Shown here: positions 2,035 to 64,000 of the stretch, piece by piece
How the letters are laid out: each line of letters opens with the position of its first letter
Position numbering within the stretch: the first letter of the stretch is position 1
From: Pseudomonadaceae bacterium
Lineage (GTDB): Bacteria; Pseudomonadota; Alphaproteobacteria; UBA2136; UBA6156
Direction of reading: 5' to 3'
DNA length: 64,000 bases
Assembly: GCA_024236095.1 (NCBI GenBank)
Contig: JACKLD010000013.1
Span: 142,368-206,367, forward strand
Translations under genes and position numbers: made by a program
Notes under the pieces: model-generated
What the model was told of the DNA's origin: nothing
Databases searched by the model: none
What the model saw: the letters and a program-made list of their open reading frames with translations, nothing else

Positions 2035-2147
2035 AATGCCGCCAGTGTGGAAGCAATGCCCTGCAAACGCAAGCTACACGGGCCAGCACATCCTATCCCC
2101 TGTGACAAACTTTCCTGTTTGGAATGGAGGGATGAGCGCCGCTGGCC

Positions 2148-2180
2148 AAAACAAAGCCCTCATTCCGAGGGCTTTGTTTT
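2148..2180. terminator. Bidirectional hairpin (13-bp perfect stem aaaacaaagccctc/gagggctttgtttt, loop attcc) with flanking T-run on the minus-strand reading
   Basis: Perfect inverted repeat read directly; lies 10 bp downstream of the minus-strand CDS ending at 2191. Confidence 0.6.
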
Positions 2181-2190
2181 GGAGCCGTGC

Positions 2191-2919: not shown

Positions 2920-3071
2920 GGCAGCGGGCGGGCCTTTTTGGTGCGGTTTTGTTGTTGCGCGGGGCTTTTTTGTCAGTATGGCCACGCAAATTGGCCGCAT
3001 TGTGCTACCGTGCACGCGGGGTGGCAAGCCCCCTTTGCGATTTTTCACAATCTTTTCATTGTTTCGCAACT

Positions 3072-3088
3072 TGGCACAGAGCGTGCAT
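3072..3088 (+). promoter_or_regulatory. Sigma54-type -24/-12 promoter (TGGCAC-agagc-GTGCA) upstream of flgFG
   Basis: GG at 3073-3074 and GC at 3085-3086 are 12 nt apart, matching the TGGCAC-N5-TTGCW consensus; it lies about 65 nt upstream of the flgF GTG. Confidence 0.5.
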
Positions 3089-3153
3089 TGCCTGTGCCAC
3101 AAGGGCGGTGCCGTGGGCACAGGCGCCTACGGCAACAACTAAGGAGACACCCC

Positions 3154-21859: not shown

Positions 21860-22744
21860 ATGTCCATTTTCATCACCGAAGACACCAAAGTCATCACCCA
21901 GGGCTTTACCGGCAAGCACGGGACGTTCCATAGCGAACAGGCACTGAAATACGGCAGCCGTTACGTGGGCGGCGTCACCCCTGGCAAGGGCGGAACCGAG
22001 CACCTCGGCTTGCCGGTGTTCGATACCGTGGCTGAAGCGGTGGCTGCCACCGGTGCCGAAGCCAGCGTCATTTACGTGCCGCCGCCGTTTGCCGCCGACG
22101 CCATTTTGGAGGCCGAAGCCGCCGGCATCAAAATCTGCGTGTGCATCACCGAGGGCATCCCCGTGCTGGATATGGTGAAGGTGAAGCGCAAGCTGATGGA
22201 CCCCAAATGCACCATGCGGCTGATCGGCCCCAACTGCCCCGGCATCATTACCCCCGGCGAGGGCAAAGGCTGCAAAATCGGCATCATGCCCGCTTACATC
22301 CACAAAAAGGGCAAGGTGGGTGTGGTCTCCAAGTCCGGCACGCTTACCTATGAGGCGGTCAAGCAAACCACCGATGTCGGCCTTGGCCAATCCACCTGCG
22401 TGGGTATCGGTGGCGATCCTGTCCCCGGCACCAACTTCATTCAGGTGCTGGCGGCGTTCGAGGCCGACCCGCAAACCGAAGGCATCGTGCTCATCGGCGA
22501 AATCGGCGGCATGGCGGAAATCGAAGCAGCCGAGTATATCAAAAACGCCGTTACCAAGCCGGTAGTGGCCTTTATCGCCGGAGCCAGCGCACCCAAGGGC
22601 AAACGCATGGGACACGCGGGCGCCATTATTTCCGGAGGCGACGACACCGCCGCCGCCAAAATCGATGCGCTGAAAAAGGCGGGCGCCACCGTGGTGGCCA
22701 GCCCCTCCGATCTCGGCGCCGCGATGAAGCAGTTGCTGGGGTAA
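21860..22744 (+). CDS. sucD: Succinyl-CoA synthetase alpha subunit
   Basis: 294 aa; CoA-binding and phosphohistidine loop ([10 protein letters not shown]). Confidence 0.95.
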
Positions 22745-49276: not shown

Positions 49277-51058
49277 TTACCCAACTCTCCCATCCACCAC
49301 CTGAAAGTCTACCCGCTCGTTCCCCATGAAGGTGTTGATGCGCAAGTGACCGGCCAGTGTGAGGGCGTTGGCCTGTTTGGAAGTTAACGCCGGCCCCAGC
49401 GGCGTGTTCATCGCGCCAAAGGCGATGGCATCCAGCTGGCTGCCATCGGCGCCCGCCAGCCGCAGCTTCAGGTGCTCTTGTGTCTTCCCCACCGGTTTGG
49501 CATAGGCCACCTGCACTTTGGAAAGCGCCAGCAACGGTTCCGGATTGCCATTGCCGAACGGCTCCAGCCGGGTGAACAGCCGTGCCAGCTCCACCGTGCA
49601 ACTGGCAGGAATCACTTCGGATTCCAGCGTCAAGGTGGGGGCCAGATGGGTGGCCAGCGGCACTGCCGCATCATAATCGGGCCGTGCCGTGACCTGCCCC
49701 AACACATGGGCGTTCAGCGCCGCACGCAGGGCATCCAGCTTGGCTGCGTCCAGCGTCAACCCCGCTGCCATGGCGTGGCCGCCGCCGCTGACCAGCAGCG
49801 CTTGCGCCGCACCCACCGCCGCGCCCAAATCAATCCCCTCCACGCTACGCCCGCTGCCTTTCAGCGTGCCGCCCTCGCCACCGCCCAGAATGAAAGTGGG
49901 CCGCCCCGTGCGTTCCTTCACCCGGCTGGCCGCCAACCCCACCACGCCCGGGTGCCATGCTGGGTTGGCCAGCACCAGCAGCGCGGTGGTGTCGTCCACC
50001 ATTGCTTCCGCCATTGCCATCGCCTCCGCCACCGTGGCTTGCTCCAGTTCACGGCGCTCGTGGTTCAGCGCATCCAGCTGCCGTGCCAGCGGCAACGCCG
50101 TGCTGTCGTCATCGGCCAGCAGCAGCTCCACCGCCGCCAGCGCGCTTTCCAGCCGCCCTGCCGCGTTCAGTCGTGGCCCAAGCGCAAAGCCAAACGTGCT
50201 GGCGGAAAGGTTGTCTTTCACGCCGGCCACCTCGGCCAACGTCGCCAACCCCCGATGCCGCCATGTGCCCAACTGTTGCAAGCCTTTGGCCACCAGAATG
50301 CGGTTGGCGGCGGTCAGCGGCATCACGTCGCACACCGTGGCCAGCGCCACCAAATCCAGCCATTGGCCCAGCTTGGGCTCGGGCCGTGTGGCACTGAAGA
50401 ACCCCCGTTCCCGCAGGTACCTGTTCAGCGCCATCAGCAGGTAAAACGCCACACCGGTGCCGCACAAACCTTGCAGATCGGAAGTGTCATCTGCCCGGTT
50501 GGGATCGACCAACGCCACGGCAGGCGGCAACGGCCCGTGGGGCGGGTGATGGTCGGTCACCACCACGTCCATGCCCAGCCGTTGCGCTTCTTCCAGCGCG
50601 GTTTGGGCGGCGATACCGGTATCCACCGTCATCACCAGCTGCACCCCTTTGCCGTGCAACACTTGCATTGCGGCGGGCGAGGGGCCGTAGCCTTCGGTTA
50701 ACCTGTCGGGCACATAGCGCAGCGGCTCCACCCCCAGCGCACGGAAATACCGTGTCATCAACGCCGTGGCGGCGGTACCGTCCACGTCATAGTCACCGAA
50801 CACCGCGATGCGTTCGCTGTTCTCCAGCGCCGCCGCCACCCGTGCCACGGCAACATCGATGTCTTTCAGGGTCGCGGGGTCGGGCAGGGCACCCAGGTTG
50901 GGAGATAAAAACGCCTCGGCCTGTTCAATCGCGTCATACCCACGTCCGGCCAGAATGTTGGCAACCACCGGGTGCAGCCCGCTGACCTGCGCCAGCGCCG
51001 CGCCCGCCCGCTGGTGGCCGTTTGCCATACGCCATTTTTTGCCGGTCAAACTCAACAT
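49277..51058 (-). CDS. recJ: Single-stranded-DNA-specific exonuclease RecJ
   Basis: DHH motifs (IAVFGDYDVDGTAATAL...VVTDHHPP) and DHHA1. Confidence 0.92.
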   Translation of the reverse strand: MLSLTGKKWRMANGHQRAGAALAQVSGLHPVVANILAGRGYDAIEQAEAFLSPNLGALPDPATLKDIDVAVARVAAALENSERIAVFGDYDVDGTAATALMTRYFRALGVEPLRYVPDRLTEGYGPSPAAMQVLHGKGVQLVMTVDTGIAAQTALEEAQRLGMDVVVTDHHPPHGPLPPAVALVDPNRADDTSDLQGLCGTGVAFYLLMALNRYLRERGFFSATRPEPKLGQWLDLVALATVCDVMPLTAANRILVAKGLQQLGTWRHRGLATLAEVAGVKDNLSASTFGFALGPRLNAAGRLESALAAVELLLADDDSTALPLARQLDALNHERRELEQATVAEAMAMAEAMVDDTTALLVLANPAWHPGVVGLAASRVKERTGRPTFILGGGEGGTLKGSGRSVEGIDLGAAVGAAQALLVSGGGHAMAAGLTLDAAKLDALRAALNAHVLGQVTARPDYDAAVPLATHLAPTLTLESEVIPASCTVELARLFTRLEPFGNGNPEPLLALSKVQVAYAKPVGKTQEHLKLRLAGADGSQLDAIAFGAMNTPLGPALTSKQANALTLAGHLRINTFMGNERVDFQVVDGRVG

Positions 51059-51113
51059 GAGCGCCACTCTAACAAAAAACCGCCCCGGTGGGGCGGTTTT
51101 TGCCAAAGGAAAA

Positions 51114-51521
51114 TCACTTGGTTGAAGTCGAGGAGGTTTTGAGGTTCTCGGCCACGACCTTGCCGATGATCTCGGTAGCCTTCACCTGGCATTGCTGCAA
51201 GGTCTTGGCCAGTTGCTGGGCGTTGCTGGAGGCGTTTTCGCTGGCCTTTTTGCTCCAGCTGGCCTGCTTGCTCATCAATTCTTCCAGACCTTGTGCCTTG
51301 CTCATGTCTTGCATGCAGGCCGCGCTGCTTTCCATCATTTGCTTGGCCATGTCCATTTGCTGTTGGTAGCAGTCGCTGCAGGCTTGGGTGTAAAGGGTTG
51401 CCAGCTTTTGGTACACCTCGGCGTTTTGGCTCCATTGCTGCTGGCTCCAGAACGATTGCATCATCTGCATGGTGGCTTGCGGGTTGAACATGTCTTGCAT
51501 GTTTTGGAACATGGCGGGCAT
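51114..51521 (-). CDS. Phasin-family (PHA granule-associated) protein candidate
   Basis: Q/M/A-rich helical 135 aa (MPAMFQNMQDMFNPQATMQMMQSFWSQQQ...); RBS agaagg; family call by composition only. Confidence 0.5.
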   Translation of the reverse strand: MPAMFQNMQDMFNPQATMQMMQSFWSQQQWSQNAEVYQKLATLYTQACSDCYQQQMDMAKQMMESSAACMQDMSKAQGLEELMSKQASWSKKASENASSNAQQLAKTLQQCQVKATEIIGKVVAENLKTSSTSTK

Positions 51522-51603
51522 CCTTCTGTTATTGGCTGTTGCAACACATCGTTGCGCAGGGGGCAAAGGTTGTCAAATCAAATTGTGCGCCGCACAAAAT
51601 TTT

Positions 51604-52998
51604 TCAATCCCCCTGTTTTATGCTGGCCGCCTTCACCCGGCTGTTGCCGAAGACGTTGTTGTTCACCGGCGGCGCGGCAGGTTTGGAGCTGCCCGCCTGG
51701 ATGATTTTTTTCTCGATTTGCTGCACGTTGCTGGCGTATTTGGCCTCGGGCTTTTCAATCAGGTTGACGTTGTCGGCATAGCTGGCCTCGGGCTGTTCCA
51801 CCAGTTGGGTGGCGCTGGAGAGCAGGGGCTCCTTCCAGGCCAAACTTGGCGGGTGGCCCACCTTGTGCCAGTTACCGGTGGCAAAGCGGTCGGGACGGAA
51901 GGGCTGCATGTTGACCGCCGGTTGCTTGCCTTGCACCAAATCAGCCAGTACCCGTGCCGCACCGGCGGCAAAAGCGTAGCTGCGGGCACCAAAGCCGGTG
52001 GCGATGTACAAACCTTTCATCCCCTCCCAAGTGCCCAGTGCCGGGCGGAAATCCGGTGTTACCGCCGCCGTGCTGACACTGACCTGCTGCACCGTGGCAT
52101 TGGCCAGATGGGGCAGCAGCTCTCCCACATGTTGGGCCAACGCCTTTACGATCCGCTCGTCGGCATGGCCGCTGAAAGTGGCCTGCGTGGGGTCCATGAT
52201 GCCATCATACGCCAGCATCACCGGTCCTTCGCGGGTGCGCTTCAGCCACAAATGGCCGCGCCGCAGGCGGTGCATCAGCATCGGGAAGCCGATGCCCTCG
52301 GCGCTTTCCAAGGTAACCAGGTGGGTGCGCGCCGGACGGATGGGCAGGCGCGGCCCCACCGTTTTCAACATGCTGCCTGCCAAGGTGCCTACCGTAATCA
52401 GCGTGTGGGCGGCAAGGCAGGTCTCGCCGCTGGCCACCCGTACGCCGGTGAAGGTGTCGCCTTCGCTCAACAGTTCCACCACGGAATCCTGTCCCCAAAT
52501 CCGCACGCCCTTGGTGGTGAGTTCGCGGCGCAGGGTTTCCAGTGCGGTGTGGGTGGAAAGCACCGGTGCGTCGGCCCACCATTTGCCGCCGCGCACGCTT
52601 TCGGCCAGCGGGGTGTCGGCATGGGTGGCGGCTCCGGCAGCGTCTACCCATTGCGAGATGATCTTGCGGGGGCTCTCGCCCTGCACTTCGGCGGCCAGCA
52701 TGGTGGCGCGTCCGGCGCTGCTGGCGATATCAAGCAGACCGCGTTCGGCCAGCCCCACATCCACCCCGTAGCGTTTGCCGACATCTTGCCAGCAGCGCAG
52801 GGAATAATCGTACAGGCTGTCCAGCAGCGCGTCGCCGCCGATTGGCGCCATCTCGCCCACATGGGTGCGGATGGGCCCCGAAAAATCCTTGTCCACCAGC
52901 CGTACGGTCAGCCCGGCCTCCACCAGCTCGCGGGCGGCCAGCAGGCCCACGATGCCGCCACCCAGCACCAACGCGTCGACGGTATCGGCCTGAGTCAT
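51604..52998 (-). CDS. FAD-dependent oxidoreductase (DAO/glycine-oxidase-like) with repetitive C-terminal extension
   Basis: N-terminal Rossmann DALVLGGGIVGLLAARELVEAGLTVRLVDK. Confidence 0.85.
   Translation of the reverse strand: MTQADTVDALVLGGGIVGLLAARELVEAGLTVRLVDKDFSGPIRTHVGEMAPIGGDALLDSLYDYSLRCWQDVGKRYGVDVGLAERGLLDIASSAGRATMLAAEVQGESPRKIISQWVDAAGAATHADTPLAESVRGGKWWADAPVLSTHTALETLRRELTTKGVRIWGQDSVVELLSEGDTFTGVRVASGETCLAAHTLITVGTLAGSMLKTVGPRLPIRPARTHLVTLESAEGIGFPMLMHRLRRGHLWLKRTREGPVMLAYDGIMDPTQATFSGHADERIVKALAQHVGELLPHLANATVQQVSVSTAAVTPDFRPALGTWEGMKGLYIATGFGARSYAFAAGAARVLADLVQGKQPAVNMQPFRPDRFATGNWHKVGHPPSLAWKEPLLSSATQLVEQPEASYADNVNLIEKPEAKYASNVQQIEKKIIQAGSSKPAAPPVNNNVFGNSRVKAASIKQGD
51729..51812. 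repeat. Imperfect 42-bp tandem duplication within the 3' end of the oxidoreductase gene (encodes EQPEASYADNVNLI / EKPEAKYASNVQQI)
   Basis: Read directly on the plus strand. Confidence 0.6.
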
Positions 52999-53070
52999 GG
53001 GGCAGGTTGCTTTCTTTTGCCGCCAGAATAGCTTGACACGGCCGCGCCATCAAGGTGACTGTGCGGCACA

Positions 53071-53997
53071 ATGCACCAAGCTGCGCCATCTTGTCACGTT
53101 GCCACCCGCCGCCTGCCGGGGGCGCCGTTGCGGGCGGCACTGGCTGCGCAGGTGCCCGCCGCCGTGGCGGCACTTCCGGCGCCGCCCAAGCTGGTGGTGG
53201 TGCGGGTGGGCGACGATCCCGCCAGCAAAGCCTTTGTCGGACATAAGCTGAAGTTGTGTGCCGGTGTGGGGCTTCCCGCCGAAGAGCTTCACCTGCGCGC
53301 CGACGAGGCCGAAGCCACCCTGCATGCCACCCTGCGCGCCTTGGCCGATGATGACGCGGTGCAGGCCGTTATCCTGCAGTTGCCGTTGCCGGCGGGATGG
53401 CAGGTGGACGCGGCGCTCAACCTGATTCCGCCCCACAAGGATTGCGATGGCCTTACCGCCGCCAATATCGCCGCACGGCAGGCGGGGCACCCGCATATCG
53501 CTCCGGCCACCCCATTGGGGGTGATGCGTTTGCTGGCGTCCATCCCCTACGATGTACGTGGCAAGCACGTAGCGGTTATTGGCAAGGGACGCGTCGCGGG
53601 CCAGCCCATGCGCGAGATGCTGGAGGCCGCAGGCGCCACGGTTACTGCCATTGACCGCGATACGCCGACACCTGCCACGTTGACATCGGTGTGCGATGTG
53701 GTCATCGCCGCTGCCGGAGTGCCGCATCTGGTGAACGAGAACTGGCTGAAACCCGGTGCCCTCGTGGTGGATATCGGTCTCACCCGCGTGGAAGGCAATG
53801 GCCAGACCCGTCTGCTGGGCGATGTGGACGCCATGAAGGTCGAGGGGGTGGCCGCGTACCTGACTCCGGTGCCGGGCGGCGTGGGGCCGCTGACCGTGGC
53901 CAGCTTGCTGACCAACGTGGTGGACTGTGCCCGCCTGCAAGCCGGATTGCCGCCATTTGCATGGCAGGTTCCGTTGCTTGACAGCTCTGCCGTGTAG
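53071..53997 (+). CDS. folD: Bifunctional methylenetetrahydrofolate dehydrogenase/cyclohydrolase FolD
   Basis: LVVVRVGDDPASKAFV...DGLTAANIA...VIGKGRVAGQPM...TPVPGGVGPLTVA. Confidence 0.92.
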   Translation: MHQAAPSCHVATRRLPGAPLRAALAAQVPAAVAALPAPPKLVVVRVGDDPASKAFVGHKLKLCAGVGLPAEELHLRADEAEATLHATLRALADDDAVQAVILQLPLPAGWQVDAALNLIPPHKDCDGLTAANIAARQAGHPHIAPATPLGVMRLLASIPYDVRGKHVAVIGKGRVAGQPMREMLEAAGATVTAIDRDTPTPATLTSVCDVVIAAAGVPHLVNENWLKPGALVVDIGLTRVEGNGQTRLLGDVDAMKVEGVAAYLTPVPGGVGPLTVASLLTNVVDCARLQAGLPPFAWQVPLLDSSAV

Positions 53998-54013
53998 GCG
54001 CACCTTCTTGCCC

Positions 54014-54370
54014 ATGCGTATGCTGTTGTTGGTTCTATTACTGCTGTTGCCGCCGTTGGCGCAGGCGGTACCGTGCGTGATGACCCAACCCGCCGCCTAT
54101 CATGTTTCCGTGGCCAAACCTTGCGCCATGGCCATGCCTGCCGCGTCTGTCGCCAAACAGGCGATGAGCGTGGCCGAGTGCTTCAAGGCTCCGGCCACCG
54201 TGCCGCCGGCCCGTGCATTGCCGGTGTCGGCACCGTACGGTGTTGGGGCCATACCCATGCCGCCCGTTGTCGGCGCTGCATATCGCCTAACCCATGCCCA
54301 GCCACTGCGTCCGCCGCCGCTGGTATCGCCGCGACGCATGCTGGCCGACCAGCAGCGCTGGCTGATTTAG
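54014..54370 (+). CDS. Hypothetical secreted Met/Cys/Pro-rich protein (118 aa)
   Basis: Signal peptide MRMLLLVLLLLLPPLAQA; low-complexity mature part; ATG 54014 inside listed ORF 53927..54370. Confidence 0.35.
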   Translation: MRMLLLVLLLLLPPLAQAVPCVMTQPAAYHVSVAKPCAMAMPAASVAKQAMSVAECFKAPATVPPARALPVSAPYGVGAIPMPPVVGAAYRLTHAQPLRPPPLVSPRRMLADQQRWLI

Positions 54371-54449
54371 AGTTTCCCCGCCCCTGTTTTTTGCCTGCAC
54401 GGATAGGCCGTGCGGGTGTCATGATGATGACCAATGAAGGATAACCAAA

Positions 54450-54953
54450 ATGAATACTGCTAAACTCGCAACCTTGACCATTGCCACCTTGATGATGGCA
54501 GGCGTGGCTCATGCCGACCATATGGGCGACAAACCCTGCGACAAAATGCACGCAGGAAAACCCTGCCCGATGATGTTGCATCAGCAAGGCCATGGTGCCC
54601 ACGCGGGCCATGCCAAAGCCGGTGCGCTGAAGGGAGACAACGGCCCGTCCAGCCAAGCGTATGACCATGCCAACATGGTGATGCACCAGGGCATGGACAT
54701 CGTCTTTACCGGTGATGCCGATATCGACTTCCTGCGCGGCATGATCGCCCACCACCAAGGTGCGGTGGACATGGCCAAGGTACAGCTGCAATACGGCAAA
54801 AACGCACAGGTGAAGAAGCTCAGCCGTGAAATCATCCGCGCGCAAGAGCTGGAAATCAGCTGGATGAAGGGCTGGCTGGCCCAGCTGGAAGGCCGCCCGC
54901 ACACTGCCGACACCAAAACGTGGATTGGTGAAGACAGCATGCTTTACAAGTAG
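54450..54953 (+). CDS. DUF305-family periplasmic protein with His/Met-rich N-terminal stretch
   Basis: Signal peptide; HMGDKPCDKMHAGKPCPMMLHQQGHGAHAGHAKAG; DUF305 core DIDFLRGMIAHHQGAVDMAKVQL. Confidence 0.85.
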   Translation: MNTAKLATLTIATLMMAGVAHADHMGDKPCDKMHAGKPCPMMLHQQGHGAHAGHAKAGALKGDNGPSSQAYDHANMVMHQGMDIVFTGDADIDFLRGMIAHHQGAVDMAKVQLQYGKNAQVKKLSREIIRAQELEISWMKGWLAQLEGRPHTADTKTWIGEDSMLYK

Positions 54954-54966
54954 ATGCATGCTGCTC

Positions 54967-54999
54967 AAATAGCCCCCCGCAGGGGCTATTTTATTGTTT
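54967..54999 (+). terminator. Intrinsic terminator after the DUF305 gene (aaatagcccc ccgca ggggctattt tattgttt)
   Basis: 9-bp stem plus a T-rich tail. Confidence 0.6.
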
Positions 55000-55100
55000 G
55001 TTCGGTTTACTTATTGTTTCTTGATGCTTCGGGTGTTAAGTAAGGATGTACGCATGTAGGATACCCTGTATGCTGCGAATATAAATAAGGAGCAAAACCC

Positions 55101-55418
55101 ATGAAATCCGTTATTACCTTGGCGCTGCTCGGCGTGGTGGTTGCCACTGCCGCCTGTACCGCCCACAAGCCTTACCCTGACGTGCGCTACAAGACATGTC
55201 CGTTCGCCGGTGTGGAAATCATCGACCAGCGCGAGTGCTTGGCGATTGACAGCATCCACAACATCAGCCCGGACATCGGCCAGAAAGTGGACATGAACAA
55301 GGTCGACAACCGCAAGACCTACATCCACCGCAAGGCGCACTACCAGTGCAAGTTCGGCGGTACCAACCCGCACCACCACAACGGCATCGTCTACCACTCT
55401 TCTTGCTACGCCAAGTAA
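55101..55418 (+). CDS. Small Cys/His-rich lipoprotein, paralog B
   Basis: Signal peptide plus VATAAC; KTCPFAGVEIIDQRECLAIDSIHNI...HYQCKFGGTNPHHHNGIVYHSSCY; RBS aaggag. Confidence 0.65.
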   Translation: MKSVITLALLGVVVATAACTAHKPYPDVRYKTCPFAGVEIIDQRECLAIDSIHNISPDIGQKVDMNKVDNRKTYIHRKAHYQCKFGGTNPHHHNGIVYHSSCYAK

Positions 55419-55434
55419 GGGTGATGCCTACTGA

Positions 55435-55460
55435 CACAACGGCCCTGCGGGGCCGTTGTG
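55435..55460. terminator. Hairpin between the convergent lipoprotein B and P-loop genes (cacaacggccc tgcg gggccgttgtg)
   Basis: 11-bp stem; same core as the rpmG terminator. Confidence 0.5.
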
Positions 55461-57407
55461 TTATTCCTTCTTGCCAAGGCCGATCATCGCCACCCCGGCA
55501 AACCCTGCCAGTGCCAGCGTAAGCCCGATGGCCTGCCCCATGTTTTGGCTCATGGTGATGATCGCCCCGATGCCGCCAATCAGCCCCAACGGCAGCAAGA
55601 CGGCGAAGATCTGTTGGAGGCCGAAGCCTTCATCAAGCATCTGCAAGCCGCCGAACTTTGCAGGGTCTTGCTTCTTGGCCTGTTGCAGGGCGCGCTTTTG
55701 CATGGCGGCGATGCCGTGGGCCGGGTCGTCCATCAGCCTGTAGCTTCCCTCAAAGGCCGCCAAGATCTCCTGCACGGTGCTGAAGCCGCCGTTGCTGGCG
55801 GTCTGGGCAATCAGCGGGCTGTACAGAACGTTGGTCTGTCCGCCACGCCCCCATGCCTGGTACAGGCTGCCCAACACGTTGCTGCGCGGCATGAACTTCA
55901 GGCGCGGCTGGTTGCTGCCGGTGCCCGCAGCCAACAGGTGTTCAAGGCTCCAGCGTACAAACCACGGTTGCAGTTTGTCCCACAGGTCGGGGCGGATGCG
56001 CGCCTGCTCTTCTTCTTGTAAAACGGTCAGAAGACTATCGCACAGCGGCAAAAGCTGGGCATCGGCCACCACCTCGTCGGCAGGGAATGCCTGTGGTTGT
56101 CGCCGCTCGCGCAGCGGCGTCAACGTCACCGCCCACAGCCGCCAATAACTCATGCCGCTGTTGCCGAACAGGTGGCTGAGTTCCGGGTCGGGGTAACTTC
56201 CGGCACGCCAATACTGGGCATTCAGCGAGATGTTTAGCAAAATCTGGTCGAATGACGGTTTTGGTGCCCCTTCCGCCAATGTGTTCATATAGCGGCTGCG
56301 CACCAGCCATGGCATCTGGCTGGTTTTGACCGGCAATTGCGCCAGCTTGGGCGAAATCTCTTCGTATGTGGCATAGGCCCCGGCCAGCAAGCTCTCCATC
56401 TCGCTGACATGGGGCAGGGGTTCCTTGCGGTGCAGGCTGTCTTCCAGAATGCGCGGCCGCAGCAATCCCGCATAAATCGCGGCACCGCCCACAACGTCCA
56501 TCATCATGGTTTTCAGTTGCAACAGGTCGTCTTCTTGCCAGTGCTTGGGGTCGATCGCCGCCATTTGGGCCCAGGCCTTCAGGGGCATGCCGTGGTAGGC
56601 GGTCAGTCCTTCTTCGTTTTGCAGCAGGTTGACATGCAGCAACCCTGCATCGCGTATCCACATCATGGCGCGACCGCCGTCATGCTGGGCCTCGGTGGCC
56701 ACGCCATGGTAGCGGAAGTAAATCATGGTCGCCAAATCGTGCTTGTCGTTGGCGATCATCGCCTTTTGCGCATAATCACGGGCGTCGGGCAACACCTCGT
56801 TGTGGCCAAGACTCACCATGAAGTATTGGAACTGGCTCAATAAAAACAGCAGTGCATTGTTGTTGGGCTCGTTGCGCAGGGTGTTTTTCAGAATGGTATG
56901 AACATCGGTGTAGCGCTGCTCCAAGAAGGCCTTGTAGGCGTTTTTCAGTTTCAGCAGGGTGGTTTTTCCGGGGCCGGCCATCATCACGGCCTCGTCGCCG
57001 ATACGGCTGATTTCATGCTCGACCAACCCTGCAAAGTGCTGGCTCGGAGGTGCCAGCGCGGCGGCCTCGGCCGATGGGGCCGGTTGTATCAAAACGCGGG
57101 CAATGGCTTGTCCCAGCGCGGCGGCATAGCCGTTGCCCACTTGCGGGGCGGCAGGTGCCACGGTTGCAGCCTCGTCCGGCAGGCCGAACTCGGCAATGCG
57201 GCGGTAGGCGGTACGGTCGGCCTCGGCAGCCTGCTTGAGCAAAACCATGATCGCCTGTACATCGGCGGCCAGTTGCAGGCTGCGCAGGGTTCCCTGCGGG
57301 GCGTCGTCATCGCGCCTGCGCCGGATGTTGGACGTACGTGCATGCTTGGCTTGCTCGTCCAGTTTTCCGCGCAACTCCAGAATACCCTGCACCAGCCGAC
57401 GGCTCAT
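55461..57407 (-). CDS. Uncharacterized 648-aa protein with a Walker-A-like motif (AGPGKTTLL) and a C-terminal double transmembrane anchor
   Basis: Long ORF; start overlaps the stop of the upstream DsbA-like gene (ATGA); C-terminal IFAVLLPLGLIGGIGAIITM...IGLTLALAGFAGVAMIGL; no Walker B recognised. Confidence 0.7.
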   Translation of the reverse strand: MSRRLVQGILELRGKLDEQAKHARTSNIRRRRDDDAPQGTLRSLQLAADVQAIMVLLKQAAEADRTAYRRIAEFGLPDEAATVAPAAPQVGNGYAAALGQAIARVLIQPAPSAEAAALAPPSQHFAGLVEHEISRIGDEAVMMAGPGKTTLLKLKNAYKAFLEQRYTDVHTILKNTLRNEPNNNALLFLLSQFQYFMVSLGHNEVLPDARDYAQKAMIANDKHDLATMIYFRYHGVATEAQHDGGRAMMWIRDAGLLHVNLLQNEEGLTAYHGMPLKAWAQMAAIDPKHWQEDDLLQLKTMMMDVVGGAAIYAGLLRPRILEDSLHRKEPLPHVSEMESLLAGAYATYEEISPKLAQLPVKTSQMPWLVRSRYMNTLAEGAPKPSFDQILLNISLNAQYWRAGSYPDPELSHLFGNSGMSYWRLWAVTLTPLRERRQPQAFPADEVVADAQLLPLCDSLLTVLQEEEQARIRPDLWDKLQPWFVRWSLEHLLAAGTGSNQPRLKFMPRSNVLGSLYQAWGRGGQTNVLYSPLIAQTASNGGFSTVQEILAAFEGSYRLMDDPAHGIAAMQKRALQQAKKQDPAKFGGLQMLDEGFGLQQIFAVLLPLGLIGGIGAIITMSQNMGQAIGLTLALAGFAGVAMIGLGKKE

Positions 57408-58273
57408 GGTATCAGCTCCCGTTGGCGCGGGCGGTTCAGCTCGTACGTCACCACGTCATCCAGCGTTTCCAGCGGCAGGCCGTTCATCCCCACATGGATG
57501 CCGTTGACCAGAACATGGGGCGGGTTGCCCACGTTCAACTGTCCGGCCAGCCGCGCATCGGCATCCAGCTCGCGGTAAAAGCGGCGGGCTTCGGTTTGCA
57601 TCAGCCGCCGGGCCTCCAGCCGGTCCATACCGATGGCGATAAGCGTATCGAAATAGCTTTCCGGGGTGGGGTTTGCCAGCGTCTCCAGTGCGTTGCGGTA
57701 TTCCCAGAACACGCCGCCGCGCTGCGCAACCTTGCCGTAAAAGGCTGCCATGTTCACGTCGTTGAATTGCTTGACCGGCGTATGGATGTTCACCACCCTC
57801 AGTTTGCTGGGATGCGCCGCCAGCAGGGCATCCACTTTTTTCAGGGTGTCCATGCATTGCACGCAGGAAAGGTCTGTCATTTCAATCAGGGTCACCAAGG
57901 CGTCATCCGGCCCTTTGGCCGGGTTGTGGGAAAACGGGTTGAAGCGCAGGCGCGTCTGCAAAAAGTGCTTGCTGGCATCGGTTTGCAACTGTTCGGGGGT
58001 GGCGGCCAGCAGCTCCTGCTCGAACAGCATGTCGCTGGTAATCACCTGCTGGGCGCCGGTACTGACGTGGGGCAGGGTGGGAGTGCTGGTGAGAATCTTG
58101 CCGGTGTGCGAGCGCACCACGCCGCTTTCAGCCTTGCCGCCGCCATGGCCGCTCGCTTCTTTGGCTGGCCCGGCAGCAGGCTCGATGGCGGCCGCATCAT
58201 GGGTTTGCCACCACACCGCAGCAGGAGCCGCCAGCAGGGCCAACAACAGAAACGGCGTCAATCGGTGCAGCAT
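57404..58273 (-). CDS. DsbA-like thioredoxin-fold protein with signal peptide and unusual CVQC active site
   Basis: MLHRLTPFLLLALLAAPAAV; DLSCVQC...NPPHVLVNGIHVG is the DsbA-family pattern; start at 58273 inside listed ORF 57404..58435. Confidence 0.8.
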   Translation of the reverse strand: MLHRLTPFLLLALLAAPAAVWWQTHDAAAIEPAAGPAKEASGHGGGKAESGVVRSHTGKILTSTPTLPHVSTGAQQVITSDMLFEQELLAATPEQLQTDASKHFLQTRLRFNPFSHNPAKGPDDALVTLIEMTDLSCVQCMDTLKKVDALLAAHPSKLRVVNIHTPVKQFNDVNMAAFYGKVAQRGGVFWEYRNALETLANPTPESYFDTLIAIGMDRLEARRLMQTEARRFYRELDADARLAGQLNVGNPPHVLVNGIHVGMNGLPLETLDDVVTYELNRPRQRELIP

Positions 58274-58403
58274 GGGTATGGTTTTTTCAAAAAAATAGCG
58301 GGAATTGCCGCGCACAGCCATGGCACAATGCAAAGGCGGCCCATACCCTGTTGCCTGCCGCCCACGATGCCCGTATAACGGAGGCACAAGGGAGGAAGAA
58401 GCC

Positions 58404-58751
58404 ATGCCGTTCGTTGTCACCGGAAAATGCATCAAATGCCGCTATTCCGACTGTGTGGAAGTATGCCCGGTGGACTGCTTCTACGAAGGCGAAAACATGC
58501 TGGTCATCAACCCCGATGAATGTATCGACTGCGGCGTGTGCGAGCCGGAGTGCCCCATTGAGGCCATCAAGAGCGACGACGAGCTTTCCAACGACGAACT
58601 GCACTGGGCCGATGTGAACGCCAAATACAGCGCCACCTGGCCGAACATCAAGGAAACCCGTGGCCCGATGCCCGAGGCCGAGAAATACGCTGAAATGGGC
58701 GCGGAAGAGAAAAAGCCGATGTTCAGCGAGAAGCCGGGTGACGGGAAGTAG
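58404..58751 (+). CDS. fdxA: 7Fe ferredoxin (FdxA type)
   Basis: [18 protein letters not shown]...[12 protein letters not shown]; RBS ggagg. Confidence 0.9.
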
Positions 58752-58768
58752 GCAAGATAGCTTTTGCC

Positions 58769-58954
58769 CACGTCATTGCGAGGAGCACGCGCCCCTGCAG
58801 ATGCAGAAGCCCCCGCCATATTCCGCGCGCGGACGTGGCAATCCATGCAAGTGTTCCCAAAAACTAGATATCCCTATGTAAGATAGTCATGGATTGCTTC
58901 GTCGGTCGACAGGAAACCATGGCGCCTCCGGGGCGCTCGTCCTCGTAATGACGG
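58769..58954. mobile_element. MITE-like palindromic element, copy B (same termini as copy A; inner loop carries an about 45-bp AT-rich insertion)
   Basis: Termini cgtcattgcgaggagcacgcgcc ... gctcgtcctcgtaatgacgg; inner ggcaatccatg ... catggattgc. Confidence 0.7.
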
Positions 58955-59006
58955 AGACTGTTTGCATTTTGGCGATAAATGCAATGTGTTGAGGTGAGTC
59001 CGGCTA

Positions 59007-60578
59007 CTAGCCCGCCACCACCTTCGCCCGCAACCAGTTGGCCAGCCCGGGGGCGAGACGTCCGAGGGTTTTGGCCATGTGCATCAGCAGCACGCGGGGG
59101 CTGGGGTTGTATTGGTTGTTGGCCACCGCGCCCACCAGCGGAGCACCTGCGGCGTTGAAGGCGTCGGCGGCCTGCTTGACCATCTCGGGCGGGGTGCGGC
59201 GCATCAGTACGGTCATCACCGCCCGTGCGCCGGCGGCGGCCAGCAGAACCGGATCGGCGTTGTTGCGGTTGTGGGCGGCAAGGGGCGAGGTATCCACGAT
59301 GATATGTTCGTAAGATGACGACAATACATCGAACAACACTTGCGCGCCGCCGCCCTGGTTCAGGAAGTCCAGCGTCGGTTTGTCCATCGGCGGCGGCAGC
59401 ACGTCCAACCCGCCCACGCCCGCACCTTGGGCGATGGCTTCGCGGTTGAAGCCGCCCTTGTTGCGTCCGACAGAGGGTTTCAAATCCCACAGGCGCGGCA
59501 CAAGGCCGAAAGCGCGGGCCAGCCCGGTGTTTTTCAGGTTCAGGTCGACAAGCAGGGTCTTTTTGCCAGCGGCAGCACTCTTCAAAGCCAGCAGGGTGGC
59601 CAGCAGGGTGGTGCCCTCGGCGCCGTGAGGGCTGACCACCACCAACGCCCCGTGCAAATTGCGGGTAAGGGCGCGGTGCAGGCGGCTTACCTCGGTAAAA
59701 CCGGTGGGATCCAGAAGGTTGTGCCCAAAGGCCACCTCCGCCTTGCCATCGTGGATGACCACATCGCCCAGATCCGGCAAGCTACCCACCACTTGAAGCT
59801 GGGTGAGACGGCGCAGTGCCGTTTCATCCACCACGCCACGCGGGCGTTTGAGGCCGATCCACAGCAAGCCAAGGCCCAAGCCTACCACCGTACCGAGGGC
59901 GACGGCGAACATGACCTGCCCCAACATGGAGGGGGTTGGCAACAATGTGGCCGGTTGGGCAAACCACATCAGCCCTCCCATGCTGCCGTGGCCGAACGCG
60001 GCGTTGACGGCGGCGGCGTCATCGGCCAGTGCGGCGTAATCGTCGGCAAGACGGGTTTCCTCCAGCCGCAGGCGGGTACGGGCGGCGGTGTCGGCAGTGG
60101 CCAGAGCACTGCGCACTTTTGCCAATTGGGCGGCGGTGTCGCTCAGGCGCTGCTCCAGCCGCAGGCGTTCCGGCGCCAGCAGTTCGTAAATGAAGTTGGT
60201 AGCCAGCGCGTCCAGCGTGACTTCCAGCCCTTCCGGCTGGGCGGCGGCGAGGCGCAGTTCCATCAAATGCGGGTTGACCACCCGCAGCTCGATTTGTTTG
60301 GGGCCAATCGCCATGCCGGTGTCGCGGGCGGTGTCGGCCAGCAGTTCAGTGCCGCGTAAAATGCTTTGCAGGGCTTGGGCGTGGCCGTCGTCCTCCAGAT
60401 TGGCCAGCAAGGGGCTGCGGGCCTTGGCGGTATCGATTTGCAACAGCGTATGCGCGGTGAAGCGCGGCGGCTGGCCCAACGCCAAGGCCACCAACAACAA
60501 CGGCACCAACACCAGCGGCAGCAACCATTGCTTGCGGTAACGCCAGATTTCACTGAGTACGATGAGGCCGGACGACAT
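59007..60578 (-). CDS. Polysaccharide co-polymerase / BY-kinase-like protein (Wzc/GumC-like) with Lys-less Walker A (AEGTT) and no C-terminal Tyr cluster
   Basis: Wzz-like N-terminal TM (LLPLVLVPLLLVALAL), coiled coil, second TM, then SPHGAEGTTLLATLLALKSAAAGKKTLLVDLNLKN. Confidence 0.75.
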   Translation of the reverse strand: MSSGLIVLSEIWRYRKQWLLPLVLVPLLLVALALGQPPRFTAHTLLQIDTAKARSPLLANLEDDGHAQALQSILRGTELLADTARDTGMAIGPKQIELRVVNPHLMELRLAAAQPEGLEVTLDALATNFIYELLAPERLRLEQRLSDTAAQLAKVRSALATADTAARTRLRLEETRLADDYAALADDAAAVNAAFGHGSMGGLMWFAQPATLLPTPSMLGQVMFAVALGTVVGLGLGLLWIGLKRPRGVVDETALRRLTQLQVVGSLPDLGDVVIHDGKAEVAFGHNLLDPTGFTEVSRLHRALTRNLHGALVVVSPHGAEGTTLLATLLALKSAAAGKKTLLVDLNLKNTGLARAFGLVPRLWDLKPSVGRNKGGFNREAIAQGAGVGGLDVLPPPMDKPTLDFLNQGGGAQVLFDVLSSSYEHIIVDTSPLAAHNRNNADPVLLAAAGARAVMTVLMRRTPPEMVKQAADAFNAAGAPLVGAVANNQYNPSPRVLLMHMAKTLGRLAPGLANWLRAKVVAG

Positions 60579-60614
60579 GGGAACAAATCCTTCTTTTGTC
60601 GCCACTATAATGGC

Positions 60615-60643
60615 TTGACCGCGCCTTGGCCAGCGGCTATAAG
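60615..60643 (+). promoter_or_regulatory. Sigma70-like promoter for rplKA (TTGACC-N17-TATAAG)
   Basis: Good spacing and hexamers about 100 nt upstream of rplK. Confidence 0.45.
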
Positions 60644-60743
60644 CCCGCTACCACGTCAACCACCCTGTGGCATGTGGGAGTTATACCACCGGACGGCCCG
60701 CAACAAGGCCTTCCACACTGGAAACGAATGAAAGGATGCCGTT

Positions 60744-61172
60744 ATGGCAAAGGAAATCGTCGGCTACGTCAAGCTGCAAGTTCCCGCAGGCCAAGCCAAC
60801 CCCGCCCCGCCGGTGGGCCCCGCGCTTGGTCAGAAGGGTCTCAACATTATGGAATTCTGCAAGGCCTTCAACGCGGCCACGCAAAAGAACTACGAACCCG
60901 GCACCCCGGTTCCGGTGGTGATTACGGCGTACAAAGACCGTACCTTCACCTTCGTCACCAAGACGCCGCCGGCCACCTGGTACATCCTGAAGGCCGCCAA
61001 ACTGAAGAAGGGCAGCGGCAAGCCGCAAGACGTGGTGGGGCAAATCACCCACGCCCAAGCGCTTGAAATCGCCCAGGCCAAGATGGTCGACCTGAACGCC
61101 AGCGACGTGAACGAAGCCGTCAAGATGATTGAAGGCTCGGCACGCAGCATGGGCATCAAGGTTGTGAAGTAA
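60744..61172 (+). CDS. rplK: 50S ribosomal protein L11
   Basis: 142 aa, highly conserved. Confidence 0.95.
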
Positions 61173-61188
61173 GGGGAGGGGACAGATC

Positions 61189-61899
61189 ATGGCAAAAGCG
61201 AAACAAGCCAACAAAGCCGCCACTCCCAAAAAGGAATGGCCCGTGTTCGATATCGACAAGGCGTACGACCTTGCCGAAGCGGTGAAATTGCTGAAAAGCA
61301 TGCCGTCTGCCAAGTTTGACGAAACGGTGGACGTGGCGCTGAACCTCGGCGTCGACCCGAAATATAACGACCAGAACGTTCGTGGCGTGGTGGCCTTGCC
61401 CCATGGTACCGGCAAGACCGTCCGCGTGGCGGTGGTGGCCAAGGGCAATGCGGCCGACGAAGCCAAAAAGGCAGGCGCCGACATTGTGGGCGACGACGAT
61501 CTCATTAAGCAAATCGAAGGCGGCACCATCAATTTCGACCGCCTGATCGCCACGCCTGACTGCATGGCGATGCTGGGTAAGGTGGCCAAAATCCTCGGCC
61601 CCAAAGGCCTGATGCCCAACCCCAAGCTGGGCACGGTGACCCCCACCCCCGCCAAGGCGGTGAAGGACGTGAAGGCAGGTCAGGTGGAGTTCCGCCTGGA
61701 AAAAGCCGGGATCATCCATGCCGGTGTGGGCAAGAAGAGCTTTACCGAACAGCAGCTGGTGGAAAACATCGCCACGCTGGTGAAAGCGGTGAAAGACGCC
61801 AAGCCCTCCGGCGCTAAGGTGGCTTACATGCTGAAAATGAGCATCAGCAGCACCATGGGCAAAGGCATCAAGGTGGACTTGAAAACCGCCGGTGCATAA
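61189..61899 (+). CDS. rplA: 50S ribosomal protein L1
   Basis: 236 aa, highly conserved. Confidence 0.95.
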
Positions 61900-61907
61900 C
61901 ACGGAAA

Positions 61908-61948
61908 GACCAACAAGAAGGCCCTCAAAAAGGGTCTTTTTGTTGGTC
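61908..61948 (+). terminator. Nested hairpin plus T-run after rplA (gaccaacaa gaaggccct caaaa agggtct tttt gttggtc)
   Basis: Read directly; consistent with the known attenuator/terminator between rplA and rplJ. Confidence 0.5.
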
Positions 61949-61959
61949 GAATTTATATA

Positions 61960-62116
61960 CCAAACCCGCCCGAAGCCCCCGGAGGAGGGGGATGCAAGGG
62001 GGAGGAGGTTCCCTCCTCCCCCTTGCCATCAAGAGTGAGGTTGGCCCGCAGGGCCAAGTTGCCGAGCCCGTAGGGCTTTAGGCAACGGGGAAAGCGCCAG
62101 CCCAGCCCCCACCGCC
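61960..62116. repeat. About 157-bp intergenic repeat, copy 2
   Basis: About 95% identical to 29471-29627. Confidence 0.85.
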
Positions 62117-62149
62117 CCCATCAAGAATACGGAAAGCGGCATTATATCC

Positions 62150-62178
62150 TTGACATAGGGGGCCTTTGCCCATAAACA
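62150..62178 (+). promoter_or_regulatory. Sigma70-like promoter for rplJL (TTGACA-N17-TAAACA)
   Basis: Near-consensus -35 and 17-bp spacer. Confidence 0.5.
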
Positions 62179-62353
62179 GCCATCAACCTGCTGAAGACAG
62201 TTGGTGCCCGCCATGGGGCGGCGCTTAAGGGGGAGCACCCCGCCAACCGAGGTGGAATGTGTGGAGACATCTCTCCAAGCTTTCCGTTTTAGCCGGTGCG
62301 CACGCCCACATGGGGTGGATGTGTGATGTGTACCAATGTGTAAGGAACAACCG
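62179..62353 (+). promoter_or_regulatory. Long 5' leader of rplJ, candidate L10(L12)4 autoregulatory leader
   Basis: About 175-nt untranslated leader between the promoter and rplJ; assignment by position and established operon biology. Confidence 0.35.
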
Positions 62354-62968
62354 ATGGACAAATCGCAAAAAGCGTCCTTCGTTGCCGACCTCAACACGCG
62401 CGTGGCCAAGGCCCAGACGATGGTGGTGTCCCACTACCGCGGTCTGACGGTCAAACAGCTGCAAACCCTGCGCGGCAAACTCCGCGAACAGGGTGGCGAA
62501 GCGCAGGTGGCCAAAAACCGCCTCGCCAAGCTGGCACTGAAGGACACGCCGTTTGAAGGCATCAGCGACCTGCTGACCGGCCCCACCATCCTCACCTTCA
62601 GTGAAGATGTGGTGGCTGCTGCCAAGGTGACCCATACCTTTGCCAAGGAGAACGAGGCTCTCGTGATTCTGGGCGGGGTGATGGAAGGCAAGGTGATGGA
62701 CAAAGCCGCCGTACTCCAGCTGGCAGCCCTGCCGTCGCTGGACGAACTGCGCGGCAAACTGGTCGGCCTGTTGCAGGCACCTGCGGCGCAAATCGCCCGC
62801 GTGCTCAAGGCCCATGCCGACAAGAACGGTGCCGAAGCCCCGGCCAAGCAGGACGAAGCGCCTGCCGCCGAAGCCGCTGCACCTGCCGAAGCGCCTGTTG
62901 TCGAAGCAGCCCAAGCCGAAGCGGCTCCTGCTGCCGAGGCACCTGCCACCGAGCAACAATCCAACTAA
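62354..62968 (+). CDS. rplJ: 50S ribosomal protein L10 with Ala/Pro/Glu-rich C-terminal extension
   Basis: MDKSQKASFVADLNTRVAKAQTMVVSHYRGLTVKQ...; the tail APAAEAAAPAEAPVVEAAQAEAAPAAEAPATEQQSN adds about 40 aa. Confidence 0.93.
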   Translation: MDKSQKASFVADLNTRVAKAQTMVVSHYRGLTVKQLQTLRGKLREQGGEAQVAKNRLAKLALKDTPFEGISDLLTGPTILTFSEDVVAAAKVTHTFAKENEALVILGGVMEGKVMDKAAVLQLAALPSLDELRGKLVGLLQAPAAQIARVLKAHADKNGAEAPAKQDEAPAAEAAAPAEAPVVEAAQAEAAPAAEAPATEQQSN

Positions 62969-62993
62969 CGAATCAAACTGAAAGGACAAAACG

Positions 62994-63359
62994 ATGTCTG
63001 CCAATCTGCAACAAATCGTTGACCAACTGTCGGCCCTCTCCGTGATGGAAGCCGCCGAACTCAGCAAAATGCTGGAAGAAAAATGGGGCGTTTCCGCCGC
63101 CGCTCCGGTGGCCGTGGCCGCCGCTGCCGCCGGTCCGGCTGAAGAAGCCAAGGACAGCTTCACCCTGAAACTGGTGAGCGCCGGCGACAAGAAGATCGAC
63201 GTCATCAAGCTGGTGCGTGAAATCACCGGCCTGGGCCTGAAAGAAGCCAAAGACCTCTCCGAGGCCGGTGGCGTGCTGAAGGAAGACGTGCCCGCCAAGG
63301 ATGCCGAAGAGTTCAAAAAGAAACTCGAAGCCATCGGCGCGAAAGTGGAACTGGCCTAA
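62994..63359 (+). CDS. rplL: 50S ribosomal protein L7/L12
   Basis: 121 aa, conserved. Confidence 0.95.
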
Positions 63360-63375
63360 GGCTGTCCCACTTCCA

Positions 63376-63403
63376 AAAAGGCTCCAAACGGGGCCTTTTT
63401 GTT
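63376..63403 (+). terminator. Intrinsic terminator after rplL (aaaggctcc aaac ggggccttttt)
   Basis: Stem plus a T5 run. Confidence 0.6.
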
Positions 63404-63409
63404 GGCCGG

Positions 63410-63452
63410 GTTTACCCCCACCGGCACGAAGTCCCCGGAGGGAGGGGGAGTA
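63410..63452. repeat. Partial (5' fragment) copy of the 157-bp repeat (acccccaccggcacgaagtccccggagggagggggag)
   Basis: Resembles positions 1-45 of the full copies. Confidence 0.45.
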
Positions 63453-63524
63453 AAGCCACTCCCACAAATGCGCATGAAGAAGCCCCGCAAAGCGGGGCCT
63501 TCGGGAAATGAAACAACGTCGCCG

Positions 63525-64000
63525 TTATTTCTTCTTCCCTTCCTTCATGTTGATGTACTCGGCGGCGTAGCGCAGGCCTTTGCCCTTGAAGGGTTCCGGC
63601 GGGCGCTTGGCGCGGGCTTCGGCGGCGAACATGCCCACCGCGTGCTTGTCGGCGCCGCTGATGGTCAGTTCGGTTTGGTCCTTGCTCACTTCCACCGCAA
63701 TGCCTTGCGGGATGTCCATGTTGACCGGGTGGCTGTAGCCCAGCGCGAGGTTCAGCTTGCTGCCCTGCATGCTGGCGCGGTAACCCACCCCAACCAGTTT
63801 CATCTTGATGCTGTAACCGTTGGTGACGCCTTCCACCATGTTGCGCACCAGCGCGCGGGCGGTGCCCCACGCGGCGCTCAGGCGCTTGGCATCGCCTTTG
63901 GGGGTGAAGGTGACTTCGTTGCCTTCCACCTTGGCGGTGATGTCATGGGGAATGGTGTGCGTGAGCGTGCCCTTGGGGCCGGCCACCTTGACGTTGCGCC
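63525..64000 (-). CDS. rplF: 50S ribosomal protein L6, 5' end beyond the window
   Basis: ...GTARALVRNMVEGVTNGYSIKMKLVGVGYRA...RPPEPFKGKGLRYAAEYINMKEGKKK aligns with L6 from about residue 10 onward. Confidence 0.85.
   Translation of the reverse strand, partial: RNVKVAGPKGTLTHTIPHDITAKVEGNEVTFTPKGDAKRLSAAWGTARALVRNMVEGVTNGYSIKMKLVGVGYRASMQGSKLNLALGYSHPVNMDIPQGIAVEVSKDQTELTISGADKHAVGMFAAEARAKRPPEPFKGKGLRYAAEYINMKEGKKK

Follow-up and report, generated by a model that had tools for sequence, protein, structure and literature searches.

The two genes considered here stand side by side on the minus strand of a 64-kb stretch of contig JACKLD010000013.1, which was analysed as a whole and is called the window below. 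The upstream open reading frame (ORF), at 57404..58273, encodes a DsbA-like protein of 289 amino acids (aa) with a DsbA fold of the Thioredoxin_4 class. The downstream ORF, at 55461..57407, encodes an all-alpha protein of 648 aa from an orphan family, referred to as the large protein. Both products are identical to proteins of a metagenome-assembled genome (MAG) at NCBI, where the large protein is listed as 'hypothetical protein H6922_03870' and the DsbA-like protein as 'thioredoxin domain-containing protein'. The junction reads ...CTG ATA CCA TGA GCC..., in which the stop codon of the DsbA-like gene and the start codon of the large gene share an ATGA overlap (-4), and a Shine-Dalgarno-like GGGAG is found 8 nucleotides (nt) upstream of it. 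An initial annotation of the window, made from the letters alone, had described both ORFs, a CVQC active site, the ATGA overlap and a C-terminal double transmembrane (TM) segment, and all of these were verified in the sequence. The gene pair is a translationally coupled two-gene operon restricted, with few if any exceptions, to one lineage of uncultured alphaproteobacteria. Its GC content is about 0.60, the same as in the remaining window, so there is no sign of recent horizontal transfer.

The coupling of the two genes extends well beyond the window. Comparison loci of about 15 kb each were labelled L001-L025, L001 and L002 being one place in two samples. When the large protein was taken as the starting point, tblastn and gene calls placed the DsbA-like gene directly upstream in all loci with upstream DNA (L001, L003-L015, L017 and L021-L023), including those whose large-protein members are only 21-30 % identical. 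When divergent DsbA-like proteins were taken instead, a profile-confirmed homologue of the large protein was found directly downstream in L018, L019 and L020, and in L024 an overlapping ORF lies downstream and is cut by the contig end. The initial annotation had named co-occurrence in other genomes as a check on the pair, and this was borne out: the genes are adjacent in 21 confirmed loci at 21-62 % identity, with L024 as a 22nd, cut-off locus and L025 as the one exception. In the 15 loci where the junction was measured from sequence it is either the ATGA overlap or a gap of 2-15 nt (-4 to +15), and the gene calls of L018-L023 range from a 4-nt overlap to a gap of 3 or 4 nt. The two families also show closely matching narrow distributions, and many of their matches lie on shared contigs.

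The DsbA-like gene product is a DsbA-fold thiol-disulfide oxidoreductase, and its layout runs from a signal sequence through an N-terminal extension of about 95 aa to a thioredoxin fold with a helical insert. Both cysteines of the CVQC active site (residues 137-140; 57854..57865, minus strand), C137 and C140, are invariant in 27 aligned relatives, as is the cis-Pro P252, and the residue preceding this cis-Pro in the family alignment is itself a Pro, which is atypical. The window protein had no Pfam match at E<=0.1 and was below NCBIfam detection too, and searched alone against the PDB it gave a weak match to 3gyk (E 0.045). Its 57 relatives include many with PF13462, Thioredoxin_4 being matched in 19 of the 27 aligned members, and the family profile matched 4pwp, the Corynebacterium diphtheriae DsbA (CdDsbA), at 3e-13, together with BdbD, 3gyk, ScsC proteins and alpha-DsbA2. 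The AlphaFold model has a predicted local distance difference test score (pLDDT) of 85 overall and above 90 in the catalytic domain. The closest folds to this model were 3gyk, BdbD, ScsC and alpha-DsbA2; Foldseek gave a TM-score of 0.79 for 3gyk and a probability of 1.00 for CdDsbA, BdbD, CcScsC and alpha-DsbA2. The fold model, the profile and Foldseek matches and the invariant CxxC all uphold the earlier description of the upstream gene as a periplasmic protein of the thioredoxin/DsbA fold. The same description had called the CVQC site unusual, which no longer holds, since the dipeptide between the cysteines is simply hypervariable in the subfamily and occurs there as 14 pairs (AQ, GQ, LQ, SK, LP, SL, RT, VQ, IQ, GL, LS, IS, AP and VA).

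The signal sequence of the window protein covers residues 1 to about 27 (58193..58273, minus strand), with a hydrophobic segment at residues 2-20. An N-terminal signal sequence was found in every member of the DsbA-like family, with cleavage sites of the AxA type in most, and the protein is therefore predicted to be a Sec-exported, soluble, periplasmic enzyme. The extension of about 95 aa was modelled as a disordered linker followed by short beta-strands (residues 52-77) and two short helices (80-91 and 99-106). Because it was not modelled as a long helical stalk, we file the protein as a DsbA-fold member of the Thioredoxin_4 class and not as ScsC. The motifs AAFYGKVAQR and TEARRFYRELDAD are strongly conserved in the family, while IEPAAG is confined to the sub-clade of the window. 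In its general form, [ILV]EPA[AS]G, this last motif occupies residues 29-35 (about 58169-58189, minus strand) in the disordered linker directly after the signal peptide and is followed by Gly/His-rich spacers; it is kept in the sub-clade and missing from the most divergent members, and it could be a docking or metal-binding site.

With the group of 3gyk, BdbD, ScsC and alpha-DsbA2 (Thioredoxin_4, PF13462) the protein shares the thioredoxin fold with helical insert, the CxxC at a helix N-terminus, the cis-Pro loop, predicted export to the periplasm and an N-terminal extension. Group members with such an extension are isomerases and work without DsbB, and in ScsC and alpha-DsbA2 the N-terminal oligomerisation region is helical and about 50-60 aa long (PMC6450060). 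The extension described here differs from these in being about 95 aa long and, according to the model, partly beta-stranded with two short helices and no long stalk. Further differences from the group as a whole are the Pro before the cis-Pro in place of Thr or Val, the hypervariable CxxC dipeptide and the possession of its own motifs, namely TEARRFYRELDAD, AAFYGKVAQR and, in the sub-clade, IEPAAG. Unlike ScsC, the protein has neither ScsB, DsbD nor DsbB encoded in the adjacent gene and no conserved copper-resistance context, and its window sequence falls below Pfam detection. It is a divergent new subfamily of a known kind. Salmonella BcfH, encoded in the bcf fimbrial operon (PDB 7jve), was also among the structural matches and offers a genetic parallel, as a pathway-dedicated DsbA paralogue whose gene lies in the operon of the machinery it serves and is co-transcribed with non-redox genes and with no redox partner; in the present case, however, the sole coupled partner is a cytoplasmic orphan protein, and genes for pili, fimbriae or secretion are lacking from the loci.

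The large protein belongs to a small and well-delimited family. Ten homologues were found in 5.8 billion (5.8e9) sequences, and a profile word-indexed search with 42 sequences gave the same 10. In 1.84 billion proteins the family has 59 representatives, nearly all of them full length (635-754 aa), and past the full-length members the E-values drop sharply to fragments. It is encoded by 14 species-level genomes, every one of them a MAG of uncultured Alphaproteobacteria, and cluster look-ups returned no cultured source. Neither the single sequence nor the profile matched anything in Pfam, NCBIfam, PADLOC, PHROGs or the PDB sequences, so the earlier statement that the protein stands outside any described family was confirmed by the Pfam, NCBIfam and PDB searches; weak Pfam matches to tetratricopeptide repeats (TPR) appeared in 11 of 42 relatives. 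Modelled by AlphaFold with the 42-sequence alignment, the protein is all-alpha with 33 helices (pLDDT 90.3; predicted TM-score 0.83). On the reading of this model, residues 1-143 comprise N-terminal helices and a variable Pro-rich linker, and a TPR-like helical repeat module of about five repeats covers residues 147-325 or so (56433..56969, minus strand), in which at least three tandem repeats have TPR geometry. It is followed by a conserved alpha-helical orphan domain of about 250 aa, at approximately residues 334-585 (55653..56408, minus strand), which carries the signature motifs PWLVRxRY, FDQxLLN, YWRLW, EHLLAAGTGSNQPR and DDPxHGLxAxQKRAL. This region had no Pfam match across 42 members and no Foldseek match in the PDB at E<=0.001, although it was not queried as a separate domain. 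The novel fold suggested by the initial annotation was not supported: about 180 residues form an ordinary TPR array, and the remainder has no detected structural match, with the same limit on the search. Invariant or near-invariant positions of the large protein are R210, E239, R252, W367, W422, W425, E467, S530 and E547. Judged from the model, the protein is a known TPR module joined to an unassigned domain, and its anchoring by a C-terminal hairpin is unusual. A redox partner of the DsbB, DsbD, ScsB or VKOR type was considered and ruled out, as the single Cys is not conserved and there are only two TM helices, where a bundle of at least four is needed.

The anchor is a C-terminal TM hairpin, placed by AlphaFold at residues 597-619 and 623-646 (55470..55619, minus strand), in which Pro606 is near-invariant and the periplasmic loop is short. 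The hydrophobic helices delimited from sequence lie at 600-618 and 626-644, and this agreement of hydrophobicity and AlphaFold confirms the double TM anchor described before. At the other end of the protein, a hydrophobic segment is missing from all 42 members. Of the sequences, 22 could be segmented cleanly, and in these the Lys and Arg residues number 74 in the 20 residues before the first TM helix, 2 in the loop and 39 after the second helix. Homologues carry in-frame stops just upstream of the start of the large gene and no in-frame upstream extension, by which the start codon is fixed. Therefore, from the absence of an N-terminal hydrophobic segment, the positive-inside counts and the fixed start, the large protein is predicted to be N-in/C-in, with a cytoplasmic body of about 590 residues anchored by its tail and only a short loop in the periplasm. 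The same evidence, namely the fixed start and the 0 of 42 hydrophobic N-termini, rules out a hidden signal peptide, a Tat motif or a wrong start. With the body in the cytoplasm the two gene products would stand on opposite sides of the inner membrane, and the periplasmic partner envisaged by the initial annotation is contradicted by this predicted topology. An electron conduit from FdxA, the product of the neighbouring ferredoxin gene, across the membrane was likewise rejected, as no Cys or His of the hairpin is conserved.

The large protein had also been proposed to be a P-loop protein, possibly a pseudo-NTPase, on account of the string AGPGKTTLL at residues 144-152 (56952..56978, minus strand). 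The string is real, but GxxxxGK[ST] was found in only one of the 42 members, the window's own, and the other 41 have unrelated residues or a gap at this position. It is therefore a chance look-alike of Walker A and not a functional motif. The all-alpha model has no beta-sheet, no nucleotide-binding alpha/beta core and no Walker B motif, and a P-loop NTPase or pseudo-NTPase is refuted by these two results.

Two well-studied membrane-anchored TPR proteins help to place the large protein by analogy. E. coli LapB (YciM) is a cytoplasmic TPR adaptor anchored in the inner membrane by an N-terminal helix, with a rubredoxin-like C-terminal domain. The large protein may resemble it in that its TPR array is cytoplasmic and held at the inner membrane by a tether, and in a presumed role as an organiser of envelope biogenesis; it differs from LapB in its C-terminal hairpin anchor, the lack of metal-binding Cys, the extra orphan domain and the absence of detectable homology. 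CcmI (CycH) is a membrane TPR chaperone that works with the thioredoxin-like CcmG and CcmH; it carries two TM helices at its N-terminus and exposes its TPR domain to the periplasm. What would be shared in this case is the genetic association of a TPR protein anchored in the membrane with a thioredoxin-fold enzyme of the periplasm, whereas in the large protein the TM helices are C-terminal, the predicted location of the TPR array is the cytoplasm, a hydrophobic N-terminal segment being absent from all 42 members, and there is no sequence match. By these analogies the large protein would work most like LapB-type adaptors, or like CcmI in reverse topology, while being a member of neither family. 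Nothing relevant describing a DsbA-TPR pair was found in the literature.

The surroundings of the pair are partly conserved. The gene fdxA (58404..58751, plus strand), encoding a 7Fe ferredoxin with a DUF3470 tail according to Pfam, is a conserved divergent neighbour and lies upstream of the pair in every locus but L016, where it is cut off, and L025. The gene order of the clade, as seen in L001, L003 and L021-L023, is rpoB-rplLJAK, Wzz-like, fdxA, pair, rpmG, exo/endonuclease-phosphatase gene, bolA, EAL, GGDEF, recJ and phasin. In the sub-lineage of the window (49277-64000) the lipoprotein gene, CopM, a Met-rich ORF, folD and a DAO-type oxidoreductase gene stand between the pair and recJ instead. 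Both flanks are thus rearranged around the pair: downstream, rpmG and bolA stand in some loci and CopM and folD in others, and upstream the Wzz-like gene is fused, split, moved or absent.

The Wzz-like gene deserves mention in its own right. In the window it encodes a Wzz/Wzc-like membrane protein with a P-loop domain that lacks the lysine (59007..60605, minus strand), and it is a frequent but not obligatory neighbour, present by tblastn in 13 of the 17 loci L001-L017. According to gene calls, L021, L022 and L023 have Wzz-type or BcsQ/AAA_31-type genes upstream of fdxA, where L018 has two genes without annotation; a glycosyltransferase gene adjoins fdxA in L022 and L024. The Wzz-like protein has two TM helices and a C-terminal BY-kinase/MinD-like domain and is split into two genes in some genomes. 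Its Walker A reads G-E-G-[TS]-[ST], without Lys in all 17 aligned sequences (window, L001, L003-L007, L009-L011, L014, L015, L017, L018 and L021-L023), and there is no C-terminal tyrosine cluster. By its sequence motifs, it is this protein, and not the 648-aa protein, that is the conserved pseudo-ATPase or pseudokinase of the neighbourhood. It was ruled out as a DsbA substrate, as it contains no Cys.

Downstream of the pair, the initial annotation had seen a periplasmic redox/metal-stress island at 53927-58273. Its components are present in the window: the DUF305 gene (54450-54953, plus strand), which matches the CopM-type metallochaperone of NCBIfam, a lipoprotein-like ORF (55101-55418, plus strand) with a lipobox Cys and several His and Cys residues, and a Met-rich ORF. 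The last of these, on the plus strand, encodes a Met/Cys-rich secreted product, and its true start is likely the ATG at 54014 (MRMLLLV...), since the GTG at 53927 would overlap folD. The island itself was not sustained by comparison. CopM lies near the pair in three of 23 loci, namely the window, L004 and L017, and is missing from the other 20, where its position is held by rpmG, the exo/endonuclease-phosphatase gene, bolA and the EAL/GGDEF genes; a weak homologue of the Met-rich ORF stands beside CopM in L004. The genes for CopM and the lipoprotein are read from the other strand and converge on the large gene, and a GC-rich hairpin with a 14-bp stem (55432..55463) stands at the convergent junction with the lipoprotein gene, with a T-rich tail on the plus strand only. 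This hairpin marks the 3' end of the operon and parts the pair from the CopM/lipoprotein unit. With CopM in three loci, convergent and behind a hairpin, there is no conserved metal island, and the window segment 54014-55418 (plus strand) is a small sporadic copper module of its own, outside the conserved unit.

What the pair does can be addressed with less firmness than what it is, and our structural statements on the pair are much firmer than the functional one. We propose that the large protein, tethered at the cytoplasmic face of the inner membrane, would act as an adaptor or scaffold that binds other proteins, that it would be made in fixed proportion with a dedicated oxidoreductase acting on the periplasmic face, and that both proteins may serve one envelope-biogenesis pathway from opposite sides of the membrane. 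The tight coupling, kept over deep divergence while both flanks were rearranged, suggests one pathway and a fixed proportion, and, a TPR array being a protein-binding device, the simplest reading of the large protein is a membrane-tethered adaptor. We infer the functional link and the adaptor role from these features, and consider the reading as a whole to have about even chances. Several points weigh against it. Database look-ups returned no cultured organism with the pair. The conserved housekeeping synteny block (rpoB-rplLJAK ... recJ) makes adjacency alone weak evidence. The two soluble bodies are predicted to stand in different compartments, and the only possible contact with the oxidoreductase, the periplasmic loop of the hairpin, is 3-10 residues long and not conserved family-wide. 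The mirror-tree analysis was not discriminating and shows no co-evolution of the pair beyond shared phylogeny, with r of 0.86 for the pair against 0.85-0.86 with the Wzz-like control and partial correlations of 0.40-0.50 for all pairs. Finally, L025 holds an in-family DsbA-like gene with neither fdxA nor the large gene beside it. There (852-3805) the DsbA-like protein P0056 has 237 aa, lacks most of the N-terminal extension, and is encoded in divergent orientation to the gene of an unrelated protein of 683 aa, which has a TM anchor at its N-terminus and a helical body that is presumably periplasmic; this 683-aa gene was considered as a divergent homologue of the large gene and rejected on its N-terminal anchor and a profile E-value of 0.044 for a single target. 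The mirror-tree result and the partnerless gene of L025 both favour the main rival view, that there is no functional link at all. The DsbA-like protein would then be the general periplasmic oxidoreductase of the lineage and the large protein an unrelated membrane protein specific to the lineage, their co-transcription being due to an inherited order in a syntenic housekeeping block. Such a view also gains from the conserved gene order from rplKAJL-rpoB to phasin and from the different compartments predicted for the two proteins. However, the junction stays at -4 to +15 nt at 21-35 % identity while both flanks rearrange, and the narrow distributions of the two families match closely, with many shared contigs, so we regard an unlinked pair as somewhat unlikely.

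The invariant Arg, Glu and Trp residues of the orphan domain would also fit an enzyme, which counts as a further point against an adaptor. The domain at 334-585 might then be a new catalytic domain acting on an envelope precursor at the cytoplasmic face, possibly with the Wzz-like pseudo-ATPase co-polymerase, and the TPR module would only position it. The invariant or near-invariant polar and aromatic residues and the long signature motifs speak for this, as do the Wzz-like gene near most loci and the glycosyltransferase gene beside fdxA in L022 and L024. But the large protein shows neither sequence nor fold similarity to any family of enzymes, the TPR part contains several of the conserved residues, which may be structural there, and the Wzz-like gene is missing from some loci; an enzymatic role is in our judgement unlikely. 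Lower still do we place an undescribed trans-envelope complex, a quite improbable arrangement in which the Cys-free, tail-anchored TPR protein would recruit or regulate the periplasmic DsbA-fold enzyme via the hairpin and its loop, coupling a cytoplasmic state or client to disulfide chemistry, with the 250-aa domain as a new fold or enzyme. The interpretation of the initial annotation, in which a DsbA with a special CVQC site is partnered by a membrane-anchored protein of the P-loop or pseudo-NTPase kind inside a periplasmic redox/metal-stress island, has in its favour that the GPGKTT string exists, that the window has CopM next to the pair and L004 and L017 have it nearby, and that DsbA-like proteins of the ScsC class are linked to copper tolerance in other bacteria (PMC5524982, PMC8900818). 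Set against the single occurrence of the motif, the all-alpha model, the cytoplasmic body, the absence of CopM from 20 other loci, its convergent position behind the hairpin and the hypervariable CxxC dipeptide, it can hardly be maintained.

If the coupling of adaptor and oxidoreductase is functional, a DsbA-family enzyme would be paired with a cytoplasmic non-redox scaffold instead of DsbB, DsbD or ScsB, and this would open a first way into an orphan family that is carried almost throughout an uncultured alphaproteobacterial clade and serves to diagnose it. Were the trans-envelope complex true, DsbA-family enzymes would have a membrane partner of a new class, one that is not itself redox-active. 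The practical value is limited, as there is no cultured member and no bearing on a recognised open question, and the main concrete outcomes are negative ones, namely the removal of the P-loop idea and of the metal-stress island.

Two minor observations concern RNA genes and regulatory sequences. A scan of the window at the Rfam gathering threshold gave no RNA family anywhere, tRNA included; ARAGORN called an 83-nt tRNA-Ala(GGC) at 21954-22036 (plus strand) with the anticodon at position 30, and this call is doubtful. In the 21 intergenic regions between fdxA and the DsbA-like gene, none of the boxes for CtrA, FNR/FixK, RpoN, sigma-32, Fur or OxyR was conserved. The motif TTGGCAACAGGG, at about 58344-58357 of the window on the fdxA side, is common to 11 of these 21 regions, and since it contains TTGCCA when read towards fdxA, it probably serves the fdxA promoter as its -35 element.

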